NCBI GenBank assembly: GCA_964492495.1
Contig: CAZBKJ010000003.1
Coordinates: 1 to 54,422 of the forward strand
Direction: 5' to 3'
From: an uncultured Pseudomonadales bacterium
GTDB lineage: Bacteria; Patescibacteriota; Microgenomatia; UBA1400; UBA12028
Length of the DNA stretch: 54,422 nt
Part shown: positions 22,900 through 50,535 of the stretch, piece after piece
Position numbering within the stretch: the stretch's first letter is position 1
Layout of the letters: each line of letters opens with the position of its first letter
Notes under the pieces: generated by a model
The model's database searches: none
The model's input: only the letters and a program-made list of their open reading frames with translations
Told to the model about the DNA's origin: nothing
Made by a program: the position numbers and the translations under genes

Positions 22900-22930
22900 G
22901 GGATTGACAAACGAGAGGAAAAAAATAAAA

Positions 22931-22936: not shown

Positions 22937-22941
22937 ATTCT

Positions 22942-23175: not shown

Positions 23176-23179
23176 TCGT

Positions 23180-25740: not shown

Positions 25741-25741
25741 G

Positions 25742-27411: not shown

Positions 27412-27541
27412 AGAGTTGTAACGACTAGAGTGTGTTGAAAGGAACACGAATCAAGGCATTATTTCATGGTAGTTCCAAGATGAGAAGTGCCTGATCTGAA
27501 GTCTTGTCATTCCACCAGCCAAAGGGTAGAGTAGGATCACA

Positions 27542-28576: not shown

Positions 28577-28610
28577 AAAGCGTAGACTAGAAGTACACAT
28601 ATACAGTGCT

Positions 28611-30620: not shown

Positions 30621-30636
30621 GTGAAAAAGGAATACT

Positions 30637-32198: not shown

Positions 32199-32533
32199 TG
32201 TTACTTCAGATAATTTCGGTCGTTTTTGGACTTTTCATGCTGTATGTCGTGAGAATTCACCATAAAAAGCGTCATTTAGAAAATTTTGAGTTTGGAATCT
32301 GGATAGCACTCTGGAGCTTGTTTATTTTTCTCGCAATGTTTCCTCAAACCGTTCAAGGAATCACGCAAACACTTCGTATTGCGAGAGTTTTTGATCTTCT
32401 TGTGGTCATCGCATTGATGATAATGATTTTCCTGACGTATTTTAATCGCATTGAGCATAAAACTCTGGAAAAGAAACTTGAACGTATTGTCCGCAAACAA
32501 GCTATCGATGAAACTACAAAATCCAACACTTAG
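32195..32533 (+). CDS. Small 3-4 TM membrane protein, DUF2304-like GT2 partner
   Basis: Start set to ATG 32195 (ATGA overlap). It is about 112 aa with hydrophobic helices and a charged C-terminal tail (LEKKLERIVRKQAI). DUF2304-type proteins typically sit next to small GT2 genes. The family call is from memory of the general pattern. Confidence 0.5.
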   Translation: MMLLQIISVVFGLFMLYVVRIHHKKRHLENFEFGIWIALWSLFIFLAMFPQTVQGITQTLRIARVFDLLVVIALMIMIFLTYFNRIEHKTLEKKLERIVRKQAIDETTKSNT

Positions 32534-33284: not shown

Positions 33285-33296
33285 TCAAGGATATGT

Positions 33297-34241
33297 ATGA
33301 AAAAAAGAGATCTTTCTTCAAAGAAAATACTGGTGACTGGTGGAGCTGGTTTTTTGGGATCGTACGTCGTGAAGGAGTTACTCAAAAGTGGTGCTCTAGG
33401 GCGAAATATTACGATACCTCGTTCAAAAGACTATGACCTGCGTAGTCAAACAGTGGTCGCCAAGTTGGTGAAGGGTATGGATATTGTCATTCATTTGGCT
33501 GCAAATGTTGGTGGAATTGGGTACAACCAAAAAAACCCCGGAAGTTTGTTTTATGACAACCTCGTAATGGGGGTTCATCTTATGGAAGAGTCACGAGTTG
33601 CAGGAGTAGAGAAATTTGTCGCTGTAGGAACAATCTGTGCGTATCCAAAGTACACACCGGTTCCATTTAAGGAAGAAGATCTTTGGAACGGATATCCGGA
33701 AGAAACAAATGCTCCGTACGGACTGGCAAAAAAGATGATGTTGGTGCAAGCGCAAAGTTACAGAGTGCAGTACAACTTCAACGCGATATACTTACTACCT
33801 GTTAATCTCTATGGTCCTGGTGATAACTTTAATCCTGACTCATCACATGTGATTCCAGCATTGATCAAAAAATTTGTTGAGGCAAAAAAAGAAAATGCCC
33901 CTACTGTTGAAATTTGGGGTACTGGAAAACCAACTCGAGAATTTTTATATGTAGAAGATGCAGCCCGCGCGATCACACTCGCGACCCTGTCCTATGATCA
34001 GTCAGATCCTGTGAATATTGGCTCAAGTTTTGAGATTAGTATCAAGGAACTCGCAACACTCATCAAAAAGCTTGTAGGGTTTTCGGGAAAAATTGTATTT
34101 GATGCGTCAAAACCTGATGGACAACCAAGAAGAAAGCTTGATGTCTCAAAAGCGAAGAACTATTTTGACTTCGAGTCTCAGGTATCCTTTACCAAAGGGT
34201 TACAAGAAACAATCGAGTGGTACACACAGCAAAAATCATAG
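33297..34241 (+). CDS. fcl: GDP-L-fucose synthase (GDP-4-keto-6-deoxy-D-mannose 3,5-epimerase/4-reductase)
   Basis: [28 protein letters not shown] (YxxxK), [28 protein letters not shown] and [10 protein letters not shown] are typical Fcl/WcaG blocks. Confidence 0.88.
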
Positions 34242-34242
34242 C

Positions 34243-35481
34243 TTATTTTTCAAGTAAATACAGTCGATACGTTTCGTTTATTGTCCATTCCTTGGAAGGT
34301 TTGATACCTTCAAAGTTTCTCACTTCATACGCCTGCGTTCGTGCTCTGTCCTCTGGCTTTCCAATGATAAATAGTGCGTCGTTTTCGTTATAGTTGCTAG
34401 TTGAGCCCTGCACATTTTCTTTGTGTAAAAGGAAATACATGACAGATGCCTTTGTCTCGTATGCTAAGTTAACAACAGCAAAGTTGGTTTGCTGTTCGTT
34501 TCGGATAATTTCTACTACTTTGATCTCATCGATAACATTCCAGTCTGGCACCATACCAAATGCATGAGAGGGCTTTTGTGTAAAAAAGAGGATCGATGTA
34601 CACAAAATGCCTAGCGATAGAACCAGACTCAATTTTTTTGGTAACTCTTTTTTTGACAAGAAGAGACTCAAGAGAAGAAACGATATTGTGAGGAAGTAGT
34701 ATGTCTGCAAACTTCCTGTTTTTCCGACTGCTTCTCCTTGATTTGAAAGAAGTAACAACACTGTGCGGATATTATAGAAATTGCTATTGAGTTCATAGGC
34801 AATCATCGGGGCATAGCCCACAATAAGTCCAAAAAAGTACATCAATGAATTTTTTATCGACATTTTTTCTCCAACGATCAAATAGATGGTCAATACAAGG
34901 ATTCCCAATACCATTTGATAATGAAAAAGCAGCAGAAAAGAAGCCCAGAATCCACACAAAAATGCAGATCGTCGGTGTCTTTTTTCTCTAAAATGCCCCA
35001 AAAAGACCACTAGTAGTGGTGACAGAATAAACTGAATGTTTGGGTTCCACAAAAATCGGGAGTACTGGACGTAAAATGGGAACAAGCAGTACATACACAC
35101 AAGTAAAAGGGCATTATGTCTAGACATAAGTTTCTTGGCACCAACATACAACGGGATAGCCATTAGACACCCAAAAAGGGTCAGTAGCCACGAGGCAATG
35201 ACAGGATCAAAGTTACTTGGAACGAGAAATAGTAACAAAACATAGTAAATAGCACTGCTTTGGATGAGATATCTTCCCTGTACATTAAATGAGGCTGTAG
35301 GACCTGGTAGCGTGTGTTCTTTGGCTTTCCAGAGATCATAGGCTTGATGTGAGAAATATCCCTGATCTGTTGAAAAATTCAGGCTTTCAGTAAAAAAAAG
35401 AGTTTTTAGAACTAAAGAAGTACAAATCAAGAAAATGAGAATATAAAATGGAAGTGTTTTGGAGTGTTGTGTTTCTTTCAT
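34243..35481 (-). CDS. Polytopic membrane protein, putative GT-C glycosyltransferase, third member of the DQG(R/Y) subfamily
   Basis: STDQGYFSHQAYDLW...LPGPTASF...YY and SRFLWNPNIQF parallel DQGRD...GPVTS and RFSWNPNIVPF of 4658-6160. Confidence 0.65.
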   Translation of the reverse strand: MKETQHSKTLPFYILIFLICTSLVLKTLFFTESLNFSTDQGYFSHQAYDLWKAKEHTLPGPTASFNVQGRYLIQSSAIYYVLLLFLVPSNFDPVIASWLLTLFGCLMAIPLYVGAKKLMSRHNALLLVCMYCLFPFYVQYSRFLWNPNIQFILSPLLVVFLGHFREKRHRRSAFLCGFWASFLLLFHYQMVLGILVLTIYLIVGEKMSIKNSLMYFFGLIVGYAPMIAYELNSNFYNIRTVLLLLSNQGEAVGKTGSLQTYYFLTISFLLLSLFLSKKELPKKLSLVLSLGILCTSILFFTQKPSHAFGMVPDWNVIDEIKVVEIIRNEQQTNFAVVNLAYETKASVMYFLLHKENVQGSTSNYNENDALFIIGKPEDRARTQAYEVRNFEGIKPSKEWTINETYRLYLLEK

Positions 35482-35483
35482 AG

Positions 35484-37073
35484 TTATTTTCTTGAGATTG
35501 ATTGAAGCAATCCTGCTGGTGAAGTCTGATATGAAAAATGTGAGAGTACTGTTTCATCTGGTATGCACAGCGGGTGTGCCGTTCCACAGCGGTCATCACC
35601 AGATACTGGAGTGGTATAGCTAAAAAGGTCTTTGTATAGACGTTTTGAGGCTGTGAAGTTGTAGACTGTTTCAACCGGAAAAAGCGCCTGACTTTTTCGC
35701 AGAGGTAGACGACTTGGAATTGCAAGATACAGTGAGCTTGCTACAAGAAGGAGAAGCGAGAGTGTAGGAATAAAGCGTGTAGTTTCGTTTGAAAACGCAG
35801 CTGCAGCGAGTACGCCCAGTGAGAGTGTCCCAAATGGCCAAAGCAAGCGGAGGTCAGGTGCTTGCGAATACGCAAGTACAGTAACTGTCCAAAAGGAAAC
35901 GACGAGAAATACCAGCGGTTTTTTCTCGTGAATGTTAAATGTCCGTACAATTAGGGAATGAAGAAAGGTAAGACAGATCAGAAGAACTACCAACTGCACA
36001 GAAGGTGGAATCGTGGGTAAAAACTTGCGAACAAACCAAGCACTTTCAGGCTCTATCCGATCTGTGTATGGTGAAAATCGTGCCCAAGAGTAGATCGTTG
36101 ATCGAAGCTCACGTACATCCTCTTTTGGAAGAGCAGACCCAGATAGAAGAGGAGCATACGTACTTTCCACAGGAAACAACAGATATCCAGTCTGTATGGA
36201 TGAAGTAATGAAAAAGACGATGCAGAGGAGACTTGCTAGAAGGAGTACAATTTTCTGTGAAAACGCTTTGTAGTAGAGAAGTGCTACAAAAAAGATGCCA
36301 ACGAACAGAAAGGCAGATGATTTTGTGGCAAATGCGAGGATACTCGCAAGAAACGCGAACGCGTAGTTTTTTTCTAAAAAAAACAGTACGGCGACGAGTA
36401 ACCAAAAAAATACACCAAGTTCAGGAGCAAGTGTCGGTATAAGGCTCATGCCATTGATGCAAAACGCAGTTACCGCTGCAAAAGTCAGAACTGTCATTTG
36501 AGAAAGCGAACGTATGTTCTTTTTGACAAAAGCAAGAAACACAGCACAACAAATCCAAAGTGCATACATAGTATTCATGATCGTAAACGACTGATCGTTT
36601 CCAGGAAGAAGAGTGTGTAAGGAAGACACGGAAAAAGTCGAACTGGTAAAGCCAAAACGACTATGAACAAGTGCGATTCCAGGAATCAAGTGGTTGTACA
36701 CATAGAGTTTTGTGAAGGGAATGTGGTACAAGAGCGAATCATACCAATCAACTGGAAAAGAACCTTCATAGAGAATACGACCACCAAGCAAAAGGAATAA
36801 AAAGAGCAGAAGTTTTGAAGGATTGATAGCGTTTCGTATGGAAAGCAGCTCGAGATGTAGTTTCTTTTGAAAAAAAACAAAAATCCCGACACCTGCGAGT
36901 ACAATGTACAAACCTATCGAAACCGGAGCGAAGAAATGAGTGAGATGGATGGAAAGAAGTACAATCGAAAAACCCAGTGTCATTTTTTCTCGGACAGTTG
37001 TACTCGAAAAAACTGAACCTAAACCGATGATGGTAAAAGAAAATAAGAAAAATATAACGGCTAAATACAGCAT
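35484..37073 (-). CDS. Large polytopic membrane protein, unknown function
   Basis: 529 aa with at least 12 TM segments. The loop FPVDWYDSLLYHIPF contains acidic and aromatic residues. No firm family assignment is possible. Confidence 0.5.
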   Translation of the reverse strand: MLYLAVIFFLFSFTIIGLGSVFSSTTVREKMTLGFSIVLLSIHLTHFFAPVSIGLYIVLAGVGIFVFFQKKLHLELLSIRNAINPSKLLLFLFLLLGGRILYEGSFPVDWYDSLLYHIPFTKLYVYNHLIPGIALVHSRFGFTSSTFSVSSLHTLLPGNDQSFTIMNTMYALWICCAVFLAFVKKNIRSLSQMTVLTFAAVTAFCINGMSLIPTLAPELGVFFWLLVAVLFFLEKNYAFAFLASILAFATKSSAFLFVGIFFVALLYYKAFSQKIVLLLASLLCIVFFITSSIQTGYLLFPVESTYAPLLSGSALPKEDVRELRSTIYSWARFSPYTDRIEPESAWFVRKFLPTIPPSVQLVVLLICLTFLHSLIVRTFNIHEKKPLVFLVVSFWTVTVLAYSQAPDLRLLWPFGTLSLGVLAAAAFSNETTRFIPTLSLLLLVASSLYLAIPSRLPLRKSQALFPVETVYNFTASKRLYKDLFSYTTPVSGDDRCGTAHPLCIPDETVLSHFSYQTSPAGLLQSISRK

Positions 37074-37096
37074 TTGTGTAGTATAACGTAGAAACC

Positions 37097-38026
37097 ATGC
37101 AGAATTTTCGTCTATTCATTACGCAATCACTTTTTTTAGGCGGTCTTTGTGGACTTGCTCTCTTCTACCCTGAATTTTCAAGTGTAGTTCTCAGCATTGC
37201 TATCGTGTGTATGCTTATTTTGTCACCCAAAGAAAGTGAATCACGATCAGTACTCCTGATTTTTAAACTGCTCACGATCGTGCTCTGCTCTGTGTATAGT
37301 GTTGGTGTGTCACTTGGATTTACATCTTCACCTCCCGTTTTCTCACTCTTTTCGACACTCAAACTCCAGCGATTTTTCACACTCCCATCATGGTTTTTTG
37401 TGGTGTTATTTCTTTTGTATATTTTTCCAGGACAGAAAGGACTTCGATCATTGGCACAGGCGATGTACTCAGAGGTCTTCTTTCGAAAAAAAGTTCTGAC
37501 ACTTTGTGTATTTGTTGTTCTTCTTTCTCAAGGAATCATCGTAGGTTCGCAAGTGGTTGAGCAGGGTACATGGACGATCCATCATATTCAGACACTCAAA
37601 GATGAGCGGTATGCGGTAAAGAAATTTGGAGTAGGAGAAGCTTTATGGTTTTACCGCGTGGGGCAGTTTTGGGACAGGGAAATTTCTGATAAAGCACATG
37701 CAGTTCTCGGGATACCTCCCCAAGGAGAGCCATGGATTCAATCAAGTAATCCATCGTATGTGTCCTCGTTTGTATTTCCGGCAAAAACGTATTCACTCTC
37801 TACACATTTTGAAACTATTCCATCAGAGATTACGCACATCGTTATTGTCCGTGGTGAAACTGACCAAGGTGATTTTGGATGGCCAAAGGCGTCAATTTCT
37901 CGGGATACAATAGCAAGACTTGTGCTATTTAATCCGTTCACTGGAGAACGGCAGGATAAAACCGGCTCAGACTATTTGCCAAAAGAATTTGAAGGGATGT
38001 ACGGACTGATTACCCTGAAACAATAA
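37097..38026 (+). CDS. Membrane protein with an N-terminal multi-TM region and a C-terminal soluble domain, unknown function
   Basis: 309 aa. There are about 5 TM segments in the first 170 aa, followed by a hydrophilic domain. No motif was recognised. Confidence 0.45.
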   Translation: MQNFRLFITQSLFLGGLCGLALFYPEFSSVVLSIAIVCMLILSPKESESRSVLLIFKLLTIVLCSVYSVGVSLGFTSSPPVFSLFSTLKLQRFFTLPSWFFVVLFLLYIFPGQKGLRSLAQAMYSEVFFRKKVLTLCVFVVLLSQGIIVGSQVVEQGTWTIHHIQTLKDERYAVKKFGVGEALWFYRVGQFWDREISDKAHAVLGIPPQGEPWIQSSNPSYVSSFVFPAKTYSLSTHFETIPSEITHIVIVRGETDQGDFGWPKASISRDTIARLVLFNPFTGERQDKTGSDYLPKEFEGMYGLITLKQ

Positions 38027-38029
38027 TCT

Positions 38030-39367
38030 ATGTCACTACTAAGCATTCTGCTACTTCTACTGTTACAACCTACAGGATTTGTAATTTTTGGATTGCTCAG
38101 AGTCTCACAAAGCATTCTCTCCTTTTCCCTCTCTTGGTTTATAGGAAGTGCAGTAGCAACCGGCGTCTTGTTTTTTCTTTTAGTCATGGGACTTCGTGCT
38201 ACTGAAAGCTTCTGGATTACGACAGTGGGTATTATTGTTGCAGCAATATGGGGAATGAAAAGCGCAGAGTACCAAAAGCTTCTTGTGCAAAGCTGGAAAT
38301 CTTTACTCCCAGATACATCAGTTCAACGAATGCTCTGTATCTCCATCGTATTTTTACTATGCTTTATTTTTGTGATGAATCAGTTCTGGCCCCATACCGA
38401 TTGGGATGCGATGACGCTCTATGATTTTCGCGCAAAAGCAGTTATTGAGACTTCGTATCTCTCACCTCTTCTTACCGGGATACAAGATGTATATCTCATT
38501 AGTTATCCCTGGTATACATCAGGGTTATTTATCCTTGCCTACTTTTCGACATCGTGGAATATTCTCGGTGTTTTTAGTTTCATGACGTTTTTTTTTCTTT
38601 GTAGTATCTATCAACTCTGTTCAAATGCAGGAGAAAAAAAACTGTCTGGATATGTCGCATCGCTGTCAGTTCTGACAATTCCTATCATCTTTTCTCATAC
38701 AATGATCGCGTACACCAACTTGGCTTTTATGATGTATTGGGCACTTGGAATCGTGCTTCTGCTTTCGTGGATTCGTTTTGGTGATGACAATCATGGAATA
38801 CTAGGCGCAACTCTATTTGGTCTTTCATCCTGGGTTCGCTCGAGTGAACCGTTTTGGGTCATCGGGGTTGGTGTGCTCATACTGGGCATCCTACTTGCAA
38901 AAAAACCAACTGCTGCTTTTTGGATTTCACTCATTTTGCTCCCCAAAATTTTGTGGAAATACTATGTCGGTTGGGTGTTGGTTCATATTCTGCCAGAATC
39001 ATCGCCTGAACTTCTAACCTTTCAAAAAGGAGGGGAAACCTCACTGCAGTTCCTCCATATCTTTGCTGATTTGGAAAAGTGGAAAGATGTCAGTATTCAT
39101 ATTCTGCGCTTTGCAGGACCTCTCTGGGGTGCGTGGTCGATTATTGTTTTTTTACTCCTGCTTGGTAGAAAATGGAGTTATAGAGAACTCACACCTTTTT
39201 CCGTCATTTTTGTAAGCATGAGTATGATTTTTGTCGGGACATTTTTATTCACTGCAAACCCATACTGGAACACGATCATCGATTCGTTTCAACGGCTTCT
39301 GCTATTCTTACTTCCTGTTTTTGTGTATACAGTATGTAGTTCACCAACTACCTATGAAAAACACTAA
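38030..39367 (+). CDS. Polytopic membrane protein, unknown function (GT-C-like size and topology)
   Basis: 445 aa with about 11 TM segments. It starts 3 nt after the upstream stop. Confidence 0.5.
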   Translation: MSLLSILLLLLLQPTGFVIFGLLRVSQSILSFSLSWFIGSAVATGVLFFLLVMGLRATESFWITTVGIIVAAIWGMKSAEYQKLLVQSWKSLLPDTSVQRMLCISIVFLLCFIFVMNQFWPHTDWDAMTLYDFRAKAVIETSYLSPLLTGIQDVYLISYPWYTSGLFILAYFSTSWNILGVFSFMTFFFLCSIYQLCSNAGEKKLSGYVASLSVLTIPIIFSHTMIAYTNLAFMMYWALGIVLLLSWIRFGDDNHGILGATLFGLSSWVRSSEPFWVIGVGVLILGILLAKKPTAAFWISLILLPKILWKYYVGWVLVHILPESSPELLTFQKGGETSLQFLHIFADLEKWKDVSIHILRFAGPLWGAWSIIVFLLLLGRKWSYRELTPFSVIFVSMSMIFVGTFLFTANPYWNTIIDSFQRLLLFLLPVFVYTVCSSPTTYEKH

Positions 39368-40187
39368 GCGTTGCACAGCGTGCAAAACCTCAAAAATTCA
39401 AGAATACTTTCAGGCAAAAACTATCACGTATTTTCTTTGCTCAGTGTGTAGTCATGTGTTTTCCTTTACTGTCCTTGAAACACCATATGAAGAGTACAAG
39501 CACGAAGATAAGTATGAGAAATGGAAAGAGTATTTACATAATGTGTTTGAAAAACGGGTGGACGATATACAAAAGTTTAAAAAGAACGGGAAGGTGCTCG
39601 AAGTTGGATGCTCACTTGGGTACTTTATGGATAAACTGATCGAAGCAGGATTTCAGACCGAAGGACTTGAGCCATCAAAAGATGCGGTGTTGCTTGGGAG
39701 AAAAAGAGGTCTTACTATTCACAAAGGGTATTTGGAGAAAAATGCGCTGACAAAAGCAAGCTATGATGTGGTTATTCTGAATCATGTGATGGAACACGTC
39801 AAAGATCTTCAAAAAGCTTGCGAATCTATTCGATCACTGCTTCGTCCTGGTGGCATCGTGTTTATTGAAAGCCCAAATTTTGGATCGATTGAAGGTCAGT
39901 TTTTTAAGTCTTCGTGGCGATACTTGTACCCAACAGAACACTATTCTCAGTTTTCACCTTCGTCACTTCAAACACTGCTTTCAAAAAATGGATTTACGGT
40001 TCTTTCTACGAAAACATCTGCAACCCCGTACGATTTTGCAAGTTTTCCAAGAGAACTTGCACGTTGCGTTCGTTTGCTTGATTGGAAGAGACTGGTTGTC
40101 TATGCTATTGAACTTCCACTTTCAACAATTGAGGTACTTACAAATAGAGGCACAGCGGTGCAGTGTATAGCAAAAAAATCTAAGTGA
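39354..40187 (+). CDS. Class I SAM-dependent methyltransferase with an N-terminal CxxC...CxxC zinc-ribbon
   Basis: Start set to ATG 39354 (MKNTKRCTACKT...CSVCSHVF), because the listed upstream extension overlaps the previous gene. It has motif I VLEVGCSLGYF, VVILNHVMEHV and LLRPGGIVFIE. Confidence 0.8.
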   Translation: MKNTKRCTACKTSKIQEYFQAKTITYFLCSVCSHVFSFTVLETPYEEYKHEDKYEKWKEYLHNVFEKRVDDIQKFKKNGKVLEVGCSLGYFMDKLIEAGFQTEGLEPSKDAVLLGRKRGLTIHKGYLEKNALTKASYDVVILNHVMEHVKDLQKACESIRSLLRPGGIVFIESPNFGSIEGQFFKSSWRYLYPTEHYSQFSPSSLQTLLSKNGFTVLSTKTSATPYDFASFPRELARCVRLLDWKRLVVYAIELPLSTIEVLTNRGTAVQCIAKKSK

Positions 40188-40728
40188 TTTTTCGAACGAC
40201 TTTTGCAGGAGAGCCAACGGCAACTGAAAAATCAGGAATTGAGGTATTCACAACACTTCCTGCTCCAATCACACAGTTCTTCCCGATCGTTACTCCAGGC
40301 AAAATAACAGAGTTGATTCCAATCCATGTACCACTTCCGATTCGTACCGGTAAAGGCTTAGTCATCCCTTGCAAAACGATAGGGACTTTTTTGTCATCAT
40401 ATCGGTGAGAGTGATCTGAAATATAGACATTAGGAGCGAGAAGAACATAGTCTTCAAGAGTAATTTCTTGTTTGGCACTTAAAAAACTATTTCTTCCAAT
40501 GTCGCAATTCTTTCCAATCGTGAGCACCTTTTTTACTTCTGGCTCAACGACATTGAGCCACACATTTTCTTGTAGATGTACATAGTCTCCAATTGAGATG
40601 TCGCGCGGATTATAAATGCGAACCCATCGATCAATTGCCACATTTTTTCCTAAGAAATAGTATGGCAAAAACATCTTGTGATAGTAGTACCGAAGTCCGT
40701 GGATGATGAGCTCAAAGAATCTTTGCAT
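40180..40728 (-). CDS. Hexapeptide-repeat (LbH) sugar O-acetyltransferase
   Basis: The left-handed beta-helix repeats IGSGTWIGINSVILPGVTIGKNCVIGAGSVV are present, and the size fits WbbJ/maltose-acetyltransferase-like enzymes. Confidence 0.8.
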   Translation of the reverse strand: MQRFFELIIHGLRYYYHKMFLPYYFLGKNVAIDRWVRIYNPRDISIGDYVHLQENVWLNVVEPEVKKVLTIGKNCDIGRNSFLSAKQEITLEDYVLLAPNVYISDHSHRYDDKKVPIVLQGMTKPLPVRIGSGTWIGINSVILPGVTIGKNCVIGAGSVVNTSIPDFSVAVGSPAKVVRKIT

Positions 40729-41530
40729 AGCGGAGTTTCCCTACGTTGTAGCATACCATCCCGTAGTACATTCCCATAAAAAGCGAGCTTTTCACCCCAA
40801 TACTTCCTTGTGACAGTCCTCCCAAGACAAGGGAAGCAGTCGTGTGATACAACGCCAAAAAGGGAGCACTCCATGGGGCAAAGTTCATCCAGGTGCTGTA
40901 GTGAATCTGCAAAAGCTGCTCAGGATCATGAAATCGTTGGAGTGCTGAGGAGTCTTGTAGGTAATACGCTGCATGAATTCGTGCCCAAGCAGTCCACTTG
41001 GTACGAAAGGTATTCCAACGCAGATTGTCGTAGGTTGGTTTGTGCTCCAGAACATACGGTGTATCAAGAACGGTTCCTTGGACTCGCACTGATTCATGTG
41101 GAACACCAAGTAACGAGATCGCAGTCATCTTGTAGAGAAAAAGTTTTCGTGGCCAAGTAGCCGTTTGGTATTTTTTTCCATCCCAGTATGGCCAGATGGC
41201 GGTATATCCATCTGCATTTTGATCAAGTAAACGAGGTATATGCGAAACGAGCTCTTCTGATAAATATTCATCTGCATCGATTTGCAGGCAGTATGGAGTA
41301 GTCACTTTGCCAAAGAGCCATGGCCGATGAGGTTCTGCCTCACCTATAAATGGCCGAATAAACACATGACAGCCAAACGTTCTGGCAATTTGTAGCGAGT
41401 TGTCTGTACACTCACCATCGTGAACCACCAGAATTGTAGAAGTTATTTTTGTCAAACTCTGAAGGCACCTCGCAAGAACTTTTTCTTCGTTATGAATGAT
41501 AAGGCACGCGGTAACACGATCAGTGGTCAT
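40712..41530 (-). CDS. GT2 glycosyltransferase
   Basis: VTACLIIHNEEKVLARCLQSL, VVHDGECTDNS and QIDADEYL are present. Confidence 0.75.
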   Translation of the reverse strand: MTTDRVTACLIIHNEEKVLARCLQSLTKITSTILVVHDGECTDNSLQIARTFGCHVFIRPFIGEAEPHRPWLFGKVTTPYCLQIDADEYLSEELVSHIPRLLDQNADGYTAIWPYWDGKKYQTATWPRKLFLYKMTAISLLGVPHESVRVQGTVLDTPYVLEHKPTYDNLRWNTFRTKWTAWARIHAAYYLQDSSALQRFHDPEQLLQIHYSTWMNFAPWSAPFLALYHTTASLVLGGLSQGSIGVKSSLFMGMYYGMVCYNVGKLRYAKIL

Positions 41531-41839: not shown

Positions 41840-42760
41840 CTATATGAACTGACGGATGGTGGCACAAGAAGCTTTAAACTGCTCTGCTTCTTTTTGTGAG
41901 AGTTCAATTTTTAAAATCTTTTCAGCTCCATTTCTCCCTACAATACACGGAACGCTTATGGAGATATCTGACTCTCCATAGTAATCTGAAATCGGAACCG
42001 ATACGGGCAGGACTGATTTTTGGTCTTGGAGTATTGCCTTGGCAAGTTGAGAGATGACAACACCAATCGCGTAGTATGTGGCACCCTTTGCTTGAATAAT
42101 TTTGCCTGCAGCCTCGCGAGTCTTTGTGTACGCATCAAGGGCAAGCTGCGTTGAAAATTCCGGGAAGTTCTCCAAAAGTTGTCCTCCAACAGATGCTGAC
42201 GCGATAGCTGGAAACGAACTATCACCATGTTCACCTAAAACGTACGCATGGATGCTTCGAGGATTTACCTTTAAAAATTCACTTAAGTGAAACCGGAATC
42301 GTGCGGTATCAAGCATTGTTCCAGATCCAATAACTCTTCCTTGGGGAAGATTAAGAAGTTTTGCAAGTCTGTATGTCAACACATCGACTGGGTTACTGAC
42401 AACGACCATGACACTCTCTTTGACGAATGGCGCAATTTGTGGGGCTAACTCATCGATAATTTTCTTGTTCTCTTCGACAAGATCAAGTCGGGATTGCCCT
42501 GGCTTCTGGGCAACTCCAGCCGTAACGATGACGACATCAGAGCCTTCAAGAAGTGCATAGTCTTCTGTCGCTACGATCTTTGTACTTTCCAAAAAGGGGA
42601 GCCCATGTTCAAGATCTAGCTTTTCTCCTTCACTTTTTTCAATAGACCGAGACACAAGAACGAGTTCATCCACCCGATGTCGAAGAAGGAGCGCGTATGC
42701 AGCGGTAATACCAACTTTGCCAAGTCCGACGATCGACACTTTATGTGAGTCAGTGTTCAT
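41840..42760 (-). CDS. ldh: L-lactate dehydrogenase
   Basis: IVGLGKVGITAAY (GxGxxG), AGVAQKPGQSRLDL (a Gln at the LDH-specifying position rather than the Arg of MDH), GSGTMLDTARFRF and GEHGDS are present. Confidence 0.88.
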   Translation of the reverse strand: MNTDSHKVSIVGLGKVGITAAYALLLRHRVDELVLVSRSIEKSEGEKLDLEHGLPFLESTKIVATEDYALLEGSDVVIVTAGVAQKPGQSRLDLVEENKKIIDELAPQIAPFVKESVMVVVSNPVDVLTYRLAKLLNLPQGRVIGSGTMLDTARFRFHLSEFLKVNPRSIHAYVLGEHGDSSFPAIASASVGGQLLENFPEFSTQLALDAYTKTREAAGKIIQAKGATYYAIGVVISQLAKAILQDQKSVLPVSVPISDYYGESDISISVPCIVGRNGAEKILKIELSQKEAEQFKASCATIRQFI

Positions 42761-42814
42761 AAAAATCCTTTACGTAGTGTGTATGATCTATACATCAAGT
42801 ATATACTACAGAGT

Positions 42815-43483
42815 ATGATAGCCAGAACGAGTGAGTCTCACGGTGATCTTCATCACAAGATAGTGCGTTTTTTTGAAAACCATATTCCTTTTTCTGTACC
42901 ACCTGAAACAATCCTGATTTCATCTACAACCAGGCCAAGTTTTATTTTTTTTCTGCGAGAAGGGGTCGTACAACAAACAGTCACAACCATCAAGGGTAAT
43001 GAGCTTTGTTTGAATTTGTATAAACCAGGAAGTTTTTTCTCTCTCATGGATGGATTAGCAGATATTCCGAATTCATATACGTTCACGAGTATTCTTTCCT
43101 CTTCAGGATGGAAAGCACCAATTGAAGAAGTAAAACACTTTATCGCACAAAATCCGGATGTCTCAACTGATCTCACAATCAGACTTCTCAAAGGTCTACA
43201 TGGTTTGCTTTCAAAAACTGAAAAGCTTATGGAAGGAAATGCACTTGGACTGCTGGTTCAGACACTACTGTCATTAGGAACACGGTTTTCACTTGCTGGA
43301 AGTAGTGATGTGATTATCACTGTCCCATTTACACATCAAAAACTTGCAGAGCTTACAGGGCTTTCACGAGAAACAGTGACAAGAGAGCTCTCGTTTCTAA
43401 AAAGTAAGCATCTGGTCTCGATTGATGCACAGCACATTACTCTTCACAATGTAGATCAGCTGCAGTCACTGTTGGATGTGTGA
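42815..43483 (+). CDS. Crp/Fnr-family transcriptional regulator (no FNR-type Cys cluster)
   Basis: It has the C-terminal HTH HQKLAELTGLSRETVTRELSFLKSKHLV and an N-terminal cNMP-binding-like beta-roll (FFLREGVVQQ...G). The start is taken at ATG 42815, while the listed GTG 42779 lies in the ldh-divergent promoter region. Confidence 0.75.
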   Translation: MIARTSESHGDLHHKIVRFFENHIPFSVPPETILISSTTRPSFIFFLREGVVQQTVTTIKGNELCLNLYKPGSFFSLMDGLADIPNSYTFTSILSSSGWKAPIEEVKHFIAQNPDVSTDLTIRLLKGLHGLLSKTEKLMEGNALGLLVQTLLSLGTRFSLAGSSDVIITVPFTHQKLAELTGLSRETVTRELSFLKSKHLVSIDAQHITLHNVDQLQSLLDV

Positions 43484-43527: not shown

Positions 43528-45081
43528 ATGAAACAGAAGCTTCTTGGACTCTTCATTGTTATTGTTGCATTTTTGGGCATACTGGACGCGACATATGTAA
43601 CGTACCAAGAAAGCCAAGGAATAATTCCACCTTGTACTCCACCTTTTTCCTGTGGACAGGTACTTGAAAGTAAGTGGTCACATATAGGGCCTGTGCCGAT
43701 ATCTGCAATTGGAGTTCTGTACTACAGTTTTGTTTTTGGTTTTGGAGTTGTTTTGTTCCTTGGAACACGAATTATTCACTATCCCAAAAAAGTTTCTGTG
43801 TATGTTGAAGACCTCCTTTTGACGTTCACATCGTGTGGTCTGCTTTTTTCCATGTACTTGATTTTTATTATGGCATTTGTTTTGCAGGCATGGTGCCTCT
43901 ATTGTCTTTTGTCTGCAAGTTTTTGCATCTTGCTCTTTGGGATGAGTTTTTTGCTTCACCGTGAGCTTCGATCTTCCAGACAAAATCCACGGTTGCCGCT
44001 TCGACGCTCGCTCTTTCGTGCACTGTATCAGTGGTGTCTAAAACCGCTGTATTTTTTACTTGATGCGGAGTTTGTTCATACAAATATGACAACAATCGGC
44101 AATGTGATGGGAAAATTTTTGGTCCTTCGATCACTTACTGCCTGGCTGTTTGCATACAGTGACAAGAAACTAGAACAAACAATTGATGGGATTGTGTTCC
44201 CAAATCCAGTCGGACTTTCAGCAGGATTTGACTATAACGCAGAGCTTCCCGGGATACTTCCAAGTGTTGGTTTTGGATTCGCCACAATTGGAACGGTAAC
44301 GAACGAGCCGTATGAGGGAAATCGAAAGCCACGTCTTGGGCGCTTTCCAAAATCACAAGCTCTTGTTGTCAATAAAGGTTTTAAATCACTTGGTGCAAAA
44401 GCTATTATTAAGAAACTTGAAGGGCACTCATTTGCAATTCCGATTGGAATTAGCATTGGAAGTACAAATAAAAACTATGACTCACTTGGTCTCCAGATTG
44501 AAAATGTTGTTGCAGGCTTTAAGCAGTTTGAAGCGTCAAAAGTAGCGCATAGTTACTATGAACTCAATATCAGTTGCCCGAACACAGCAGGAGGGCAACC
44601 GTTTACGACTCCGGCTCGATTGAAGAAACTTCTTGTGGCGCTGCAAAAACTACATATTTCAAAACCCATCTACATAAAGATGCCGATTGATCTGCAGTTT
44701 TCAGAAGTGCTGCCACTTTTAGAGCTTGCTGATAGCTTTAACATTCACGGCGTTATTTTTGGAAACTTAACAAAAGATAAAAATAATCCTGATGTGCATC
44801 CAGCTGATAAGAAAAGTTGGAAAAATATTCAAGGAAATTTGAGTGGGAAACCAACATGGAATCGGTCAAACAATTTGATCCAGATGACGAAGAAGACTTT
44901 TGGATCTCGGTTTACGATCATTGGGGCAGGTGGAATTTTTACCCCAGAGGATGCACAATTTAAGTTGTCTTTGGGGGCGGATCTTGTAGAGCTTATTACC
45001 GGAATGATCTATGAAGGGCCACAATTGATTGGTGCAATCAATGAGTACATACGAGATACAAAGGTGTATCGTACAAAGTAA
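43528..45081 (+). CDS. pyrD: Fusion protein: N-terminal VKOR (vitamin K epoxide reductase-family) membrane domain plus dihydroorotate dehydrogenase (class-2-like)
   Basis: The VKOR part has 4 TM segments, a loop Cys pair PPCTPPFSCGQV, a conserved Ser (ESKWS) and CxxC (AWCLYCLL). The DHODH part has YFLLDAEFVH, NPVGLSAGFDYNAE, IGTVTNEPYEGNRKPRLGRF, VNKGFKSLG, YELNISCPNT, IIGAGGI and ELITGMIYEGP. Confidence 0.8.
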   Translation: MKQKLLGLFIVIVAFLGILDATYVTYQESQGIIPPCTPPFSCGQVLESKWSHIGPVPISAIGVLYYSFVFGFGVVLFLGTRIIHYPKKVSVYVEDLLLTFTSCGLLFSMYLIFIMAFVLQAWCLYCLLSASFCILLFGMSFLLHRELRSSRQNPRLPLRRSLFRALYQWCLKPLYFLLDAEFVHTNMTTIGNVMGKFLVLRSLTAWLFAYSDKKLEQTIDGIVFPNPVGLSAGFDYNAELPGILPSVGFGFATIGTVTNEPYEGNRKPRLGRFPKSQALVVNKGFKSLGAKAIIKKLEGHSFAIPIGISIGSTNKNYDSLGLQIENVVAGFKQFEASKVAHSYYELNISCPNTAGGQPFTTPARLKKLLVALQKLHISKPIYIKMPIDLQFSEVLPLLELADSFNIHGVIFGNLTKDKNNPDVHPADKKSWKNIQGNLSGKPTWNRSNNLIQMTKKTFGSRFTIIGAGGIFTPEDAQFKLSLGADLVELITGMIYEGPQLIGAINEYIRDTKVYRTK

Positions 45082-45089: not shown

Positions 45090-45719
45090 ATGCTATTTTC
45101 AAAATCCGAGCTGGGAATATATGGAAGAGTTGTGTTTGTAAGTTTGGTTTTGTACGGAGCGTTGTATGCCTATACAAGCTACATGGGTATCCCCAATGTG
45201 ATGAATAAAAGTGTCGCAGATGCATCGATTGTCCTGATTGGACTTTCCATGTGGCTGTCATCCCTAAGTTACTTTTTTACCATCTTTGATCCGCTGATCA
45301 AGTATCGAAAACACCTCGGGCTCGTGGGTTTTGCGTATGGAGTGACCCATATCATTCTCTCGTTTTCTGCCTTACAGCTTCTCTTTGATATCAAAACTTG
45401 GCAAACAGGCACCATGTGGCCAGCGCTCACGGGTCTACTTGCGACAGTTATTTTTTCGGTGATGACGCTAATCTCAAATAGGCTGATGATGACAAAACTG
45501 GGTGTTGTGCTTTGGAGACAAATTCTTCGACTCGGATATATAGCCATGATTTTTGTGGTAGCGCATGTTGTGCTTTTAAAGTATGCACGTTGGGCGACCT
45601 GGGCGAGTGAACTCCAGTCACCACCGTCTACAAGCTTGATGGTGACTGTGTTCTCGTTGGTTGTGATCCTCATGCGACTACTTATGGAATGGAGAATTCG
45701 TCGTACTGCAATACGATAG
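45090..45719 (+). CDS. Six-TM ferric-reductase-domain / MsrQ(YedZ)-like putative heme-b membrane protein
   Basis: 209 aa with 6 TM segments. His residues sit in TM3 (RKHLGLVGFAYGVTHI) and TM5 (LWRQILRLGYIAMIFVVAHV), in the same pattern as E. coli MsrQ (R..LGL..F....H and W..LH..Y......H). It starts 8 nt after the VKOR-DHODH stop. Confidence 0.55.
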   Translation: MLFSKSELGIYGRVVFVSLVLYGALYAYTSYMGIPNVMNKSVADASIVLIGLSMWLSSLSYFFTIFDPLIKYRKHLGLVGFAYGVTHIILSFSALQLLFDIKTWQTGTMWPALTGLLATVIFSVMTLISNRLMMTKLGVVLWRQILRLGYIAMIFVVAHVVLLKYARWATWASELQSPPSTSLMVTVFSLVVILMRLLMEWRIRRTAIR

Positions 45720-46585: not shown

Positions 46586-46677
46586 TCTCCTTTTTGTTCT
46601 TGAAGTATACCAACCTGATCAAGCACAGGGAAATCGAATGTCAATTGAATCAAGTCCCATGTGGTAGCATAGGATCT

Positions 46678-47754
46678 ATGGCGCTTATTGGCTTGAATAC
46701 ACTTTTTCTAGTTCCAAACCAGGTCGGTGGAACTGAGTACCTCACACGAGCGTTTATTGATGCTCTGCAAAAAGACACAACTCATCAGTACGTCCTTTTT
46801 TGTAACAGAGAGAATGCAGATACCTTTCAGGTTGATCCCACAAGAATGAAGAAGGTCGTGTGTCCTGTATCGGCATCAAATCGTATTGCCCGAATAGTGT
46901 ATGAGCAGTGTATTTTTCCTTTTGTGATACAAAAAGAACGGTGTGATCTCTTACATTCCTTCGGGTACACCGCACCTTTTTTTGCTTCATGTCCACAGAT
47001 AACAACGGTTCATGACACCAACTGGCTTGATCATCCTGAAGATTTTTCTCTGCTTTCTCGGTTTATGACGAATGTCCTGGTGAGAGGGGCAATCAAGAAA
47101 AGTGTAAAAGTCATCACTGATAGTGCATTTTCAAAATCCAGACTTTTGTTGCACTTCCCAGATCACGTAAAAAAAGTTGAGATTGTTCTTCCGATCATTG
47201 ATACAAAACTCTACAAATCTCCTTTTGTTGTCGTCCCAAAAGAGTTGTCAGGAAAGAAGTATTTCTTGTGTGTCAGTGCACTATATCCACACAAAAAAAT
47301 TCCGTTTCTTCTCAAGCTTTGGGAAGAAATTGAGCAGCAAGACACAAAGATCCCCTTGGTTTTGGTTGGAAGAAATGGGAGAGATGAAGAAGGTGTTACA
47401 GCGAAACTGAAATCCTTGCAGTCTGTTGTCTATTTTCCCAAGGTTTCCTTTGAAATGCTGCAGTCCTTGTACCACCATGCTTCTGGGTTTATTCACCCTA
47501 GCGTCTACGAAGGTTTCGGATACCCGGTCTATGAGGCGTACGGAGCCTCTCTACCAATCCTTGTGGGGAAAAAGAACATGTATGAACAAAGCATACAAGC
47601 AAATCTAGAAGAGCTGACGTTTGATAGCAAAAAGGACAGTACAATGGTGAAGCGAATACTAGAGCGTACAAAAACAAAAAAGCCAAACCATCTCTGGAGT
47701 GATACAGACTCACTACAAAACCTACTTATCGTGTATGCAAAAGCACTTCAATAA
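46678..47754 (+). CDS. GT4 (group 1) glycosyltransferase
   Basis: Start set to ATG 46678 (MALIGLNTLFLVPNQVGGTEYL). The E-x7-E block is SVYEGFGYPVYEAYGASLPILV. Confidence 0.8.
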   Translation: MALIGLNTLFLVPNQVGGTEYLTRAFIDALQKDTTHQYVLFCNRENADTFQVDPTRMKKVVCPVSASNRIARIVYEQCIFPFVIQKERCDLLHSFGYTAPFFASCPQITTVHDTNWLDHPEDFSLLSRFMTNVLVRGAIKKSVKVITDSAFSKSRLLLHFPDHVKKVEIVLPIIDTKLYKSPFVVVPKELSGKKYFLCVSALYPHKKIPFLLKLWEEIEQQDTKIPLVLVGRNGRDEEGVTAKLKSLQSVVYFPKVSFEMLQSLYHHASGFIHPSVYEGFGYPVYEAYGASLPILVGKKNMYEQSIQANLEELTFDSKKDSTMVKRILERTKTKKPNHLWSDTDSLQNLLIVYAKALQ

Positions 47755-49579
47755 ACTTACCCTAGAAATAGTCGTGCTCTTCTCAGGACTCTTTGTAGTT
47801 GGAAGCTCGTATGTGCTTTCATTTTTCAACGCATTCTCTCAAGTGTACCTTTCGATGGTCGCTGTCATCCTTTGTTTTTTTTGGATGGGTTTTATCTACT
47901 CGAAGTTCCCCAAAGTAAAGTACTCATCCATTTCATTTCGCCGTCACATCACACTGTGTGTCTTTGGAATTTTCGCTCTACTCACATTCTTTCAAGGGTT
48001 TTTGTCTCGGCCAACGACGACAGATGCTCATAACTACCATATTGCTCGTGCGATGTACTGGATGGCCGATAGAACAGTACTGCAAGATCAAGTCTATACT
48101 TCACATGACTTCATGGGTCCATTCCCAAGCATGCTCAATGCAGTTCTCTATAGTACTCTAGACGCCGATACACTCTTGTTTTTTGGACAATGGATTTCGT
48201 TTGTCTTGTGTTTCTTTTTGGTAGGAAGGCTTGCGGATTCACTATCGGCAACGCCTACCCAGAGAAAGATTGCACAACTTTTATTTCTTGCGATTCCCAT
48301 CGTCGTGCTTGAAGCAAGTAGTACGCAAGCAGACCTACTGGTCACTGTGTGGTCGCTTTTGACAGTTCTTTTTGCACTGCGCTACAGGTATCAAGCGAAG
48401 TCACATACTCTCATTTTTCTCTGTCTTGCTGTTGGCTTAGGGATTCTTACCAAAGCGACCATGTATATCTATGCGATCATTCCTTTTATCATTGTTGTGT
48501 GGTCTTTTTATCACAGCAAAGAGAAAGTGAAGAGCGTTTTGTTTGGAAGTGCTGGAATTCTGTGTCTGGTTTCACTCCTGCTTCCGATGGTGCTTCAAAA
48601 CAAACGGCTCTTTGACTCATATCTTGGGGATAGTTACAAAATAGAAGGAGGGAAAATACCCTTTACAGTCACTGAGTATACGATTGGTGGTGCCATTTTG
48701 AATGTCTATAGAAATATTGTGATGAATGTGCCATTTCTTGTCTTTGCTCCTCAAATTGATCGTATCGTCGAGCCTGTGTTCATTTCTCTTGGAACATCAT
48801 TTTCAGATAGGCGATATGCATGGTTTGAGCAGAAGTTTGAACATTTGTCGTTTCCAATCCCTCAAGAAGACATAGCTCCTGCTCCTATTCAGGTTGTATT
48901 GATCCTCACTGCGACAGCTTTTGTATGGAAGAGGAAAGGAAAGAAAGAGCTAGCAGTTCTTTTTTATGCTTCTGTCCTTTCGTTTGTAGTTTTCTCCGTT
49001 GTATTGCTTTGGCAGGAATATCATGTCCGACAACACATATCTCTCATGGTGATTTTCTTGCCAGTGGTTGCGCTCGTCATTCCTTTTTCACAATACATCT
49101 GGAAAATAATTGTTGCACTCTCAGTCTCATCTGCATTTGTTGTCCTTCTTGCCAATACATCAAGGCCTCTCATCTCGTACGAACATATATTCCCATATAT
49201 TTCATCCTATGCGCCAACGGGCTTTTCTCCGCCTGAATCCGTTTTGTATGGTAGAACTGACCAGCAACTGTTTTTGTCACGACCATACTGGTATACACCG
49301 TATACAGAAACAATCGCTCTACTGCGACAAAATAATATTCGTGTTGTCCGCCTACGTGTGGACGAAGGGTACATCTATCCCTTTATAGCGCTGGCAAAAG
49401 ACAAAGGAATAGTTGTTGTTTCAAATGCAACAACTCCAGTTGAAGCTGAAGTCTTTGCTGGACTGAGAGAAAAATATCAATTTGCTCCAGCCGATAGCTG
49501 CATTGCTGTCCAGGGTCAGCGACAGATTATGTGCGTTCGTTTTGCCGTACCAACAATACAGAAAATCTCCAGTCTATGA
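47735..49579 (+). CDS. Large polytopic membrane protein, putative GT-C-like glycosyltransferase
   Basis: Start set to ATG 47735 (MQKHFNKLTLEIVVLF). There are about 13 TM segments, the first large loop is TTDAHNYHIARAMYWMADR, and there is a C-terminal soluble domain. The family is not firmly assignable. Confidence 0.5.
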   Translation: MQKHFNKLTLEIVVLFSGLFVVGSSYVLSFFNAFSQVYLSMVAVILCFFWMGFIYSKFPKVKYSSISFRRHITLCVFGIFALLTFFQGFLSRPTTTDAHNYHIARAMYWMADRTVLQDQVYTSHDFMGPFPSMLNAVLYSTLDADTLLFFGQWISFVLCFFLVGRLADSLSATPTQRKIAQLLFLAIPIVVLEASSTQADLLVTVWSLLTVLFALRYRYQAKSHTLIFLCLAVGLGILTKATMYIYAIIPFIIVVWSFYHSKEKVKSVLFGSAGILCLVSLLLPMVLQNKRLFDSYLGDSYKIEGGKIPFTVTEYTIGGAILNVYRNIVMNVPFLVFAPQIDRIVEPVFISLGTSFSDRRYAWFEQKFEHLSFPIPQEDIAPAPIQVVLILTATAFVWKRKGKKELAVLFYASVLSFVVFSVVLLWQEYHVRQHISLMVIFLPVVALVIPFSQYIWKIIVALSVSSAFVVLLANTSRPLISYEHIFPYISSYAPTGFSPPESVLYGRTDQQLFLSRPYWYTPYTETIALLRQNNIRVVRLRVDEGYIYPFIALAKDKGIVVVSNATTPVEAEVFAGLREKYQFAPADSCIAVQGQRQIMCVRFAVPTIQKISSL

Positions 49580-50535
49580 AAAAGAAACGCCCAAGTGTGT
49601 GTTTTTTTGTGATTGCCTACGGACAGGAAGAAATTGTAGATGCGTGTTTGAAAAATCTCACGACTCTTTTTTCCCCCCAAGATATTTGGTTGATTGATAA
49701 TGCATCACCAACAAGTCTTGCAAAGATAGCAAAAAAATATGGGGTTCACTGTGACAGGCAGGTTGAGAATAAGGGATATTCAGGTGGATGCAATAGTGCC
49801 GTCTCAATTTTTCAAAAAAAGACAACTGCAGATGTCTGTTGTTTGCTCAACAGTGATGTGTTTTTTGATGGGCAGTTTGTTGCGCAGTTGCCATACGAGT
49901 TGTTACGTTTACAACACGACTTGAAACTTGCACTTATTCAGCCAGTACTCTATATGGATACCCAAAAGGGACGAGTTGAGAATAATGGAATACGATACTT
50001 TCAAAGCGGTCTCGCGTTTCAGTCGATGCGAGACAGTGGCAAGGTGGTCGTGAATGGTGCGTGCATGTTACTCAAGCGTGTAGCAGTAGAAGATATCATT
50101 TCTCAAGATGGGTTTTGTTTTGAAGAGATTTTTTGGAGCTATGCGGAAGATGTTGAGCTATCGTTGCGGTTACTCTCAAGAGGCTGGAAAATTGATGTGA
50201 GTCCCTTGCTCTCTGCACAGCACTTGGGCTCTGTTTCATTTGGGAGAGGCTCTAGCAGATCGAGGTATTTGTATGCTCGAAATCTTTTTTGGACAATACT
50301 TATAGCCTGGGATCGAAAAATGCTTGAAAAATACGTCTTGCACGTGTTTGTCGGTCAATTGCGCATCTTTGTTGAGTTTGCTGTTAGTGGAGAAATTGGA
50401 GGGTATATAAAACTCTTACGAGAATCCCAGGAAAAAAAGAATGTACTCTTGAAAAAAAGAGAAAATTTTCAAGGAAAGAAAACACATTCATTTGAAGCGT
50501 ATCTACAACCAGGAAGTTTCCCTGTCAGGCGTTAA
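49576..50535 (+). CDS. GT2 glycosyltransferase
   Basis: Start at ATG 49576 (ATGA overlap). Motifs are VCFFVIAYGQEE, IDNASPTS, NKGYSGGCNSA and LLNSDVFF. Confidence 0.75.
   Translation: MKKKRPSVCFFVIAYGQEEIVDACLKNLTTLFSPQDIWLIDNASPTSLAKIAKKYGVHCDRQVENKGYSGGCNSAVSIFQKKTTADVCCLLNSDVFFDGQFVAQLPYELLRLQHDLKLALIQPVLYMDTQKGRVENNGIRYFQSGLAFQSMRDSGKVVVNGACMLLKRVAVEDIISQDGFCFEEIFWSYAEDVELSLRLLSRGWKIDVSPLLSAQHLGSVSFGRGSSRSRYLYARNLFWTILIAWDRKMLEKYVLHVFVGQLRIFVEFAVSGEIGGYIKLLRESQEKKNVLLKKRENFQGKKTHSFEAYLQPGSFPVRR

Follow-up and report, generated by a model that had tools for sequence, protein, structure and literature searches.

Introduction

Pyrimidine synthesis has a single redox step, carried out by dihydroorotate dehydrogenase (DHODH, or PyrD), and the classes of this enzyme are defined by the electron acceptor, which may be fumarate, NAD+ or a respiratory quinone. 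The quinone-dependent class 2 enzymes, represented by those of Escherichia coli (1f76), Helicobacter pylori (6b8s), Mycobacterium tuberculosis (8ofw) and human, have an N-terminal helical tunnel domain, and their catalytic base is a serine (E. coli S175, human S215), whereas the class 1A and 1B enzymes, such as Lactococcus lactis PyrDa and PyrDb, are soluble, are without the N-terminal helical domain and have a cysteine base within the motif N-x-S-C-P-N. Bacterial VKORs, which are disulfide-forming enzymes of the membrane, share a four-helix core and are described both as stand-alone proteins, for example in actinobacteria, and as the Synechococcus VKOR-thioredoxin fusion (3kp9/4nv5), in which an extracytoplasmic thioredoxin is joined through a fifth helix. 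Both VKOR and DHODH normally reduce quinone. Bacteria belonging to the candidate phyla radiation (CPR, or Patescibacteria) are thought to be without respiration and quinone synthesis, and mostly without nucleotide synthesis. Here we describe an open reading frame (ORF) on a 54,422-nt stretch of CPR DNA (contig CAZBKJ010000003.1, hereafter the window), in which a VKOR and a DHODH form a single polypeptide.

The fusion and the gene cluster around it point to a small, hitherto undescribed redox module, based on quinone, in ultra-small bacteria that are credited with next to no redox metabolism. A sequence-only reading, made earlier from the letters of the window, had proposed the fusion and had allowed that its architecture might prove both common and already characterised. 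The architecture is indeed common in the CPR, but a full-text literature search returned no paper describing a VKOR-DHODH fusion, a class 2 DHODH with a cysteine base or the gene cluster. In a 2026 survey of the contexts of VKOR, the only ones mentioned are fusions with DsbA/thioredoxin and neighbouring viral epoxidases. Databases already annotate the fusion proteins, for example as "quinone-dependent dihydroorotate dehydrogenase". The replacement of the catalytic serine by cysteine, the occurrence of the same pair as separate, linked genes and the conserved cluster all go beyond the earlier reading. This variant, common within one large, poorly studied radiation, bears on how lineages with a cysteine-base PyrD dispose of the electrons of dihydroorotate, and on how disulfides are formed in CPR cells, which rely on pili and on proteins at the surface and have no known quinol sink. 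One ORF and one neighbouring gene make a compact, expressible test object.

The window encodes an in-frame VKOR-DHODH fusion

Within the ORF (Table 1), the Pfam VKOR model PF07884 matched residues 9–140 (E=1e-21; 77.9 bits against a cut-off of 27.5), covering positions 2–133 of the 134 in the model, and the DHO_dh model PF01180 matched residues 215–508 (E=7.8e-47; 160.3 bits against a cut-off of 27). The best NCBIfam matches were all to quinone-dependent (class 2) DHODH models, of which TIGR01036 (pyrD_sub2) was passed at 208.7 against a cut-off of 200 and NF003652 (quinone-dependent DHODH) marginally, at 269 bits against 267, with eight other class 2 sub-models falling below their own cut-offs. 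Every VKOR and PyrD motif quoted in the sequence-only reading is present, and its proposal of an in-frame fusion was borne out by the two Pfam domains, both above threshold, together with the two NCBIfam class 2 models. The ORF is thus confirmed as a genuine VKOR joined to a DHODH.

An AlphaFold2 model of the fusion, calculated with 28 homologues as input, reached a pLDDT of 91.2 and a pTM of 0.83. Four long helices are followed by a short linker of lower confidence, three short helices and a barrel, and Foldseek comparison of the model with class 2 DHODH structures gave TM-scores of 0.81–0.89, normalised to target length. The window protein itself had no record in the contig index that was searched. 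From its two domains, the product would serve a CPR/Patescibacteria bacterium as a membrane redox enzyme with two functions.

Table 1. Features of the fusion and its surroundings, with window coordinates, and arrangements of separately encoded VKOR and DHODH genes in related loci
Feature	Location	Strand	Evidence or remark
VKOR-DHODH fusion ORF	43528..45081	+	ATG start, 517 aa, single unbroken frame
VKOR domain, residues 1-148	43528..43971	+	PF07884; alignment to Synechococcus VKOR residues 20-152; AlphaFold2 helices; positive-inside tally
Loop cysteine pair C36...C42, predicted extracytoplasmic loop	43633..43653	+	Invariant in alignment A1; equivalent to C50/C56 of 4nv6
Conserved S48	43669..43671	+	Equivalent to S62 of 4nv6
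C123-L-Y-C126 putative redox motif, outer end of fourth transmembrane helix (TM4)	43894..43905	+	Invariant in A1; equivalent to C130/C133 of 4nv6
Arg-rich linker, residues 149-157, predicted cytoplasmic	43972..43998	+	7 Lys/Arg in residues 144-166; pLDDT about 70
Class 2 DHODH N-terminal helical (quinone-tunnel) domain, residues 158-207, retained	43999..44148	+	Includes E181 and H184 (E. coli E16 and H19)
DHODH FMN-binding barrel, residues 208-512	44149..45063	+	PF01180; Foldseek to class 2 DHODH
Active-site motif N347-I-S-C350-P-N352	44566..44583	+	Cys at class 2 catalytic Ser position (E. coli S175); invariant in A1 and A2
NAD-dependent L-lactate dehydrogenase	41840..42760	-	TIGR01771, 337.5 bits against cut-off 303.55
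Crp/Fnr-family regulator, 234 aa, single Cys	42779..43483	+	PF13545 (HTH) and PF00027 (cNMP-binding-like)
MsrQ/YedZ-like (Ferric_reduct) putative haem-b membrane protein, 209 aa, polytopic	45090..45719	+	PF01794, 24.7 bits, under cut-off 28
Fe/Mn superoxide dismutase	20260..20859	-	Window
VKOR directly upstream of DHODH, 4-bp overlap	L051, L055
VKOR directly upstream of DHODH, longer apparent overlap	L061
VKOR-LDH-DHODH	L058, L087
VKOR-LDH-flavodoxin-DHODH	L063
VKOR-flavodoxin-DHODH, genes overlapping	L085, L169, JGI contig KAm04TG8
DHODH, then Crp, then VKOR-LDH	L045, L048, L052

The VKOR domain is complete and predicted to face outward

Four transmembrane helices were modelled in the VKOR domain, at residues 2–29, 58–77, 93–119 and 124–148, and the alignment with the crystallised Synechococcus VKOR spans the entire four-helix core. 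The loop cysteines C36 and C42, the conserved S48 and the C123/C126 pair at the start of TM4 all align with their counterparts in that structure (Table 1). These five residues are invariant in 28 aligned fusion proteins that share 49–73% identity with the window protein, and all four cysteines are kept in separately encoded VKORs as well. The domain is a putative thiol-dependent quinone (or epoxide) reductase.

A positive-inside tally placed the N-terminus, the loop between the second and third transmembrane helices and the Arg-rich linker on the inside, and the cysteine-bearing loop on the outside. In the predicted topology both termini of the VKOR and the DHODH are cytoplasmic and the VKOR cysteines lie outside, which is the canonical VKOR orientation. 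A fifth transmembrane helix that would export the DHODH was considered and rejected on hydropathy, on the Arg-rich linker and on the AlphaFold2 helices. In contrast to the Synechococcus fusion, the partner here is a cytoplasmic flavoenzyme that directly follows TM4, and no gene for a thioredoxin-fold partner lies near the VKOR-DHODH. Across the family, 43–54 residues (mode 53) separate the CxxC and DAExxH motifs. Given that the two active sites are predicted to lie at opposite membrane faces, coupling between them would be possible only through a diffusing quinone.

The DHODH domain is class 2 by homology with cysteine at the base position

The sequence-only reading had placed the VKOR where the class 2 membrane anchor would be. 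This did not hold: NCBIfam matches, alignments with solved structures and the AlphaFold2 model all show that the segment of about residues 158–207 is retained, with the VKOR added in front of it. The segment was modelled as three helices (158–175, 180–196 and 198–207), the NCBIfam class 2 models match from residues 162–172, and the alignment with the H. pylori and M. tuberculosis class 2 structures runs from residue 171 onward. The equivalents of the quinone-site residues are conserved (H184, E. coli H19; R272, E. coli R102). From these retained tunnel residues, quinone would be the likely acceptor of the DHODH.

The orotate and flavin mononucleotide (FMN) residues N265, N347, N352, K384 and N413 are invariant in the family, the last four corresponding to E. 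coli N172, N177, K217 and N246, and the Asn and Lys residues of this site are the same across all 160 DHODH domains compared. Within the fold of a class 2 PyrD, however, the position of the catalytic Ser175 is occupied by cysteine (C350) in every one of the 160, as NISCPN in 159 and NVSCPN in one, where related class 2 structures carry SSPN; in addition, E. coli Tyr318 is replaced by Ile. A cysteine base is otherwise a mark of classes 1A and 1B, but the domain carries the N-terminal extension that those enzymes lack and scores poorly against class 1 profiles (TIGR01037, 52.6 versus 270; NF005574, 51.7 versus 269), with E=6e-84 for class 2 versus 3e-14 for class 1. By homology, then, the domain is assigned to class 2 while departing from one defining feature of that class. 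Other departures from described class 2 enzymes are the complete VKOR, fused in front or encoded next to the DHODH, and a host lineage without known quinone synthesis or respiration.

DHODHs with and without a linked VKOR showed no strong residue signal when compared (maximum Jensen-Shannon divergence 0.45), and no residues that distinguish the two groups were found within the quinone-tunnel helices. A terminator-like hairpin followed by a T-run was noted at 44029..44049 (+), about ten codons past the VKOR/DHODH junction and within the conserved YQWCLKPLYFLL coding motif. It was not accepted as a true terminator and is taken as a chance occurrence, seven such sites being present in the region against 3.4 expected.

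Fused, linked and unlinked forms recur across the CPR

The search of related genomes that the sequence-only reading had called for found the same architecture widely. Both Pfam domains were present in all 120 of the best homologues (49–73% identity), which lie on contigs of up to 1.37 Mb from NCBI, JGI, ENA and Logan assemblies, many of them independent; a single homologue was present on 28 contigs. The closest named relatives of the fusion belong to Woesebacteria, Cerribacteria and Pacebacteria. A scan of GTDB species genomes yielded 512 loci with a relative, and one ORF held both domains in 66 of the best 80. Named hosts of these GTDB relatives were Patescibacteria/CPR groups (Pace-, Woese-, Roizman- and Cerribacteria, or Microgenomates). 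Among 160 non-redundant family loci, the fused state accounts for 88 (drawn from GTDB genomes and from JGI, ENA and Logan assemblies), a VKOR gene close by for 13 and the unlinked state for 60, the last figure including the E. coli outgroup.

Separate genes for a stand-alone VKOR of about 150 residues and a Cys-type DHODH lie together in roughly twelve of the GTDB loci and on several contigs from metagenomes, either directly adjacent or with one or more genes between them (Table 1). Stand-alone VKORs of the same type are numerous, the top 150 representatives being mostly 145–170 residues long. A neighbour-joining tree built on the DHODH domain has the fused, nearby and unlinked states interleaved in blocks, which suggests several fusion or fission events, as far as so crude a tree can be read. 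Linkage of VKOR and DHODH is strong yet not obligatory. A large set of 57 loci (L094–L166) contains unfused CPR DHODHs with NISCPN, no VKOR within 4 kb and no conserved neighbours. The class-2-like PyrD with a cysteine at the base position is consequently a broader family than the fusion.

A conserved redox gene cluster surrounds the fusion

In the window the gene order is L-lactate dehydrogenase (LDH, minus strand), a Crp-family regulator, the VKOR-DHODH and a Ferric_reduct-like gene, the last three on the plus strand. LDH lies beside the module in 13 other loci of one neighbourhood set and in more elsewhere, and the Crp/Fnr regulator adjoins it in at least 14 other loci. A malate dehydrogenase that could supply fumarate was considered for the LDH-like neighbour and rejected, given that the L-LDH equivalog is passed (Table 1). 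The annotated starts of the divergent LDH/regulator pair (41840..43483) are only about 18 nt apart.

The Ferric_reduct-like gene begins 8 nt past the stop codon of the fusion. Its product resembles MsrQ/YedZ, the haem-b quinol-oxidising subunit of MsrPQ, in being a small polytopic protein with a Ferric_reduct-type match and two invariant histidines, and 22 close homologues were found, named YedYZ haem-binding subunit in JGI. H87 and H159, invariant among these homologues and within predicted transmembrane segments, would fit a single haem b with two His ligands, like that of MsrQ/YedZ. No solved structure related to the protein was matched by sequence. Unlike MsrQ/YedZ, it lies below the Pfam gathering threshold, has no adjacent molybdoenzyme MsrP and is linked to Crp, VKOR and DHODH. 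The gene stands next to the VKOR/DHODH module in seven further loci (L005, L006, L087, L168, L169, L170 and KAm04TG8) and within a few kb of it in L062 and L114. The complete four-gene order of the window recurs in L005 and L170; L087, L168, L169 and KAm04TG8 contain a rearranged cluster, typically DHODH<-(Fld)<-VKOR beside Crp->Ferric_reduct, with or without LDH. One homologue of the MsrQ-like protein (P0278, L167:975-1888) is encoded away from VKOR and DHODH, beside a sortase gene and about 3 kb from msrA (PMSR) and msrB (SelR).

Other genes accompany the module in some relatives. In L085 (8453-8884), L169 (3299-3724), L045, L048, L057 and L063 there is a short-chain flavodoxin gene, placed either between VKOR and DHO_dh, where start and stop codons overlap, or after LDH in the same cluster, which hints at a further electron carrier of the module; the window has no such gene. 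A gene of the DsbD_2-type reductive pathway adjoins the module in three relatives. Copper-homeostasis clusters adjoin the LDH/Crp/VKOR/DHODH module in L085 (1-2483), L169 (6654-10303) and L170 (1-3247), each with a DsbD_2+cupredoxin fusion protein and an HMA Cu-ATPase, together with DUF305 in L169 and L170 and an ArsR/YHS regulator in L170.

Possible routes of electron flow

The reading that we favour, with a probability of roughly 0.42, is that both domains run in their canonical directions and reduce a shared, scavenged quinone, the quinol being re-oxidised by a cytochrome b. Electrons would reach the four-helix VKOR from a thioredoxin-fold partner outside the cytoplasm, pass along C36/C42 and C123/C126 and be delivered to membrane quinone. 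The cytoplasmic C-terminal domain would be the PyrD of the organism, oxidising dihydroorotate with Cys350 as base and passing the electrons via FMN to the same quinone. This quinone is presumably scavenged and scarce, since genes for quinone biosynthesis are reported to be missing from CPR genomes, some of which nevertheless encode quinol oxidases (PMC8407418). The fusion may have arisen when two neighbouring genes of a co-regulated redox cluster, which often overlap, were merged, and it would tether PyrD at the membrane beside the other quinone user. Re-oxidation of the quinol would fall to a separate component, for which the MsrQ/YedZ-like putative haem-b protein immediately downstream is the best candidate in the window; it could hand electrons to an outside acceptor, possibly O2. 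The shared quinone, its scavenged origin, the cytochrome b outlet and the activity of both domains are what we infer from the evidence above.

The electron path proposed here, from thiols by way of quinone to a haem protein of the membrane, resembles the pathway of oxidative protein folding that leads from DsbB or VKOR through quinone to a terminal oxidase. It would differ in having PyrD as a second quinone reductase within the same polypeptide and in ending at an MsrQ-like protein with a single haem, not at a bd or bo3 oxidase. In the three relatives with a DsbD_2-type gene beside the module, VKOR would not be needed as a reductase. If the favoured reading is true, the locus defines a minimal quinone-based electron-transfer module and a Ser-to-Cys subclass of DHODH that is currently annotated "quinone-dependent DHODH".

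Several points weigh against this reading. A 2026 preprint reports that de novo nucleotide synthesis is missing from 93% of Patescibacteria genomes (bioRxiv 10.64898/2026.06.21.733656). The MsrQ-like gene adjoins the module in only about 10 of about 165 loci, its Pfam score is sub-threshold, and no MsrP-like gene was found by Pfam among its neighbours in the window. Clustering of the neighbours of 81 and 57 loci gave no conserved thioredoxin- or DsbA-like gene, and 57 of the best 80 metagenome relatives of an unfused DHODH have no VKOR gene within 4 kb. Moreover, two consumers of oxidised quinone gain nothing kinetically from proximity, so that tethering and co-regulation would be the only explanation of the fusion.

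As both enzymes normally reduce quinone, any direct coupling between them would require VKOR to run backwards, from quinol to disulfide. In such a closed loop, which spells out the second suggestion of the sequence-only reading and is the main rival, though we regard it as unlikely, the reversed VKOR would be the electron outlet of PyrD and the protein a dihydroorotate:protein-disulfide oxidoreductase. Electrons would pass from dihydroorotate through FMN to a locally retained quinone, which would flip to the outer leaflet and reduce C123/C126, then C36/C42 and finally an extracytoplasmic disulfide, and pyrimidine synthesis would be freed from any respiratory chain. The loop explains the fusion best, in that the product of each domain is the substrate of the other, and fusion and repeated operonic linkage usually mark consecutive steps. 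It also fits the invariance of all four cysteines, the retained quinone-tunnel helices and the biology of the CPR, which are without respiratory chains and quinone synthesis and in which, as the same preprint reports, redox functions and nucleotide synthesis are lost together. The overall thermodynamics are favourable by the textbook potentials of orotate/dihydroorotate (about -258 mV) and DsbA-type disulfides (about -120 mV), but menaquinone (about -74 mV) lies above most disulfide couples, and the second step would be uphill unless the quinone were almost fully reduced. We know of no VKOR or DsbB homologue shown to run physiologically from quinol to disulfide, so the direction would be without precedent. 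It would also oppose oxidative folding and need a steady supply of disulfides outside, and it sits poorly with the DsbD_2-type reductive pathway beside the module in relatives and with the many family DHODHs that have no linked VKOR; the MsrQ-like and flavodoxin genes are left unexplained. That the protein forms a self-contained transmembrane redox loop, by which non-respiring, quinone-auxotrophic CPR make pyrimidines with protein or small-molecule disulfides as terminal acceptor, is accordingly quite doubtful; were the closed loop true, DHODH would gain a new class of acceptor, and a VKOR would for the first time be seen to run in reverse physiologically.

The opposite logic, in which the DHODH-like domain oxidises the quinol made by VKOR, is improbable. 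Electrons from outside thiols would then pass through VKOR, quinol and FMN to a cytoplasmic acceptor such as fumarate, giving a self-contained disulfide-forming machine. A cysteine base as in the fumarate-using class 1A enzymes, the need for extracytoplasmic disulfides in organisms with no known quinol sink and the many stand-alone VKORs of the same type speak for it. The domain is nevertheless clearly class 2 by its profile scores, orotate as acceptor would be strongly uphill and fumarate use is pure conjecture, and a DHODH family that also occurs without a linked VKOR is a misfit for a VKOR accessory. Still less probable is a neutral fusion, in which co-regulated neighbours merged in a compacting genome and VKOR is an anchor without redox role. 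The 4-bp overlaps of the VKOR/DHODH pairs in L051 and L055 make plain that the genes would readily fuse once a stop codon was lost, the predicted topology is compatible with simple fusion, and the DHODH tree has fused, adjacent and unlinked members interleaved. However, C36, C42, S48, C123 and C126 are invariant at 49–73% identity, unfused partners keep the four cysteines, and a DHODH that retains its own membrane-binding helices needs no anchor. Invariance of the VKOR redox residues alongside that of the orotate/FMN-site residues of the DHODH argues against a mere anchor and for selection of both domains as enzymes. The same five residues, with the tunnel helices of the DHODH, disfavour the suggestion in the sequence-only reading that the VKOR is only a dedicated quinone-binding anchor. 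An assembly chimera, or two genes merged by a frameshift, has a negligible probability: all 120 top homologues and 88 loci share the fusion architecture, and the linker can be aligned throughout the family, its modal spacing being 53 residues. An assembly artefact was rejected on the recurrence of the architecture in independent assemblies.

Other genes of the window

The 54-kb window contains no pyr genes (including pyrB, pyrC, pyrE and pyrF), no quinone-biosynthesis genes and no respiratory genes; the flanks of about 80 loci contain, of pyr-related genes, only an ornithine carbamoyltransferase (L083) and a weak, sub-threshold PyrE-like protein (L068). The superoxide dismutase encoded in the window (Table 1) suggests that the organism meets oxygen, which is relevant to any model in which a quinol or a haem-b protein would in the end reduce O2. 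Most of the remaining sequence belongs to a very long glycan and cell-envelope island (28..41530 and 46594..50535). Its large ORFs without a Pfam match lie at 8555..9799, 20998..22581, 25742..26791, 28611..30620, 35484..37073, 37097..38026 and 38030..39367. The recognisable genes of the island encode a UDP-glucose dehydrogenase, several NDP-sugar epimerases/dehydratases, more than 12 GT2/GT4 glycosyltransferases, at least seven PMT_2/ArnT-like membrane proteins and a Wzx-like flippase.

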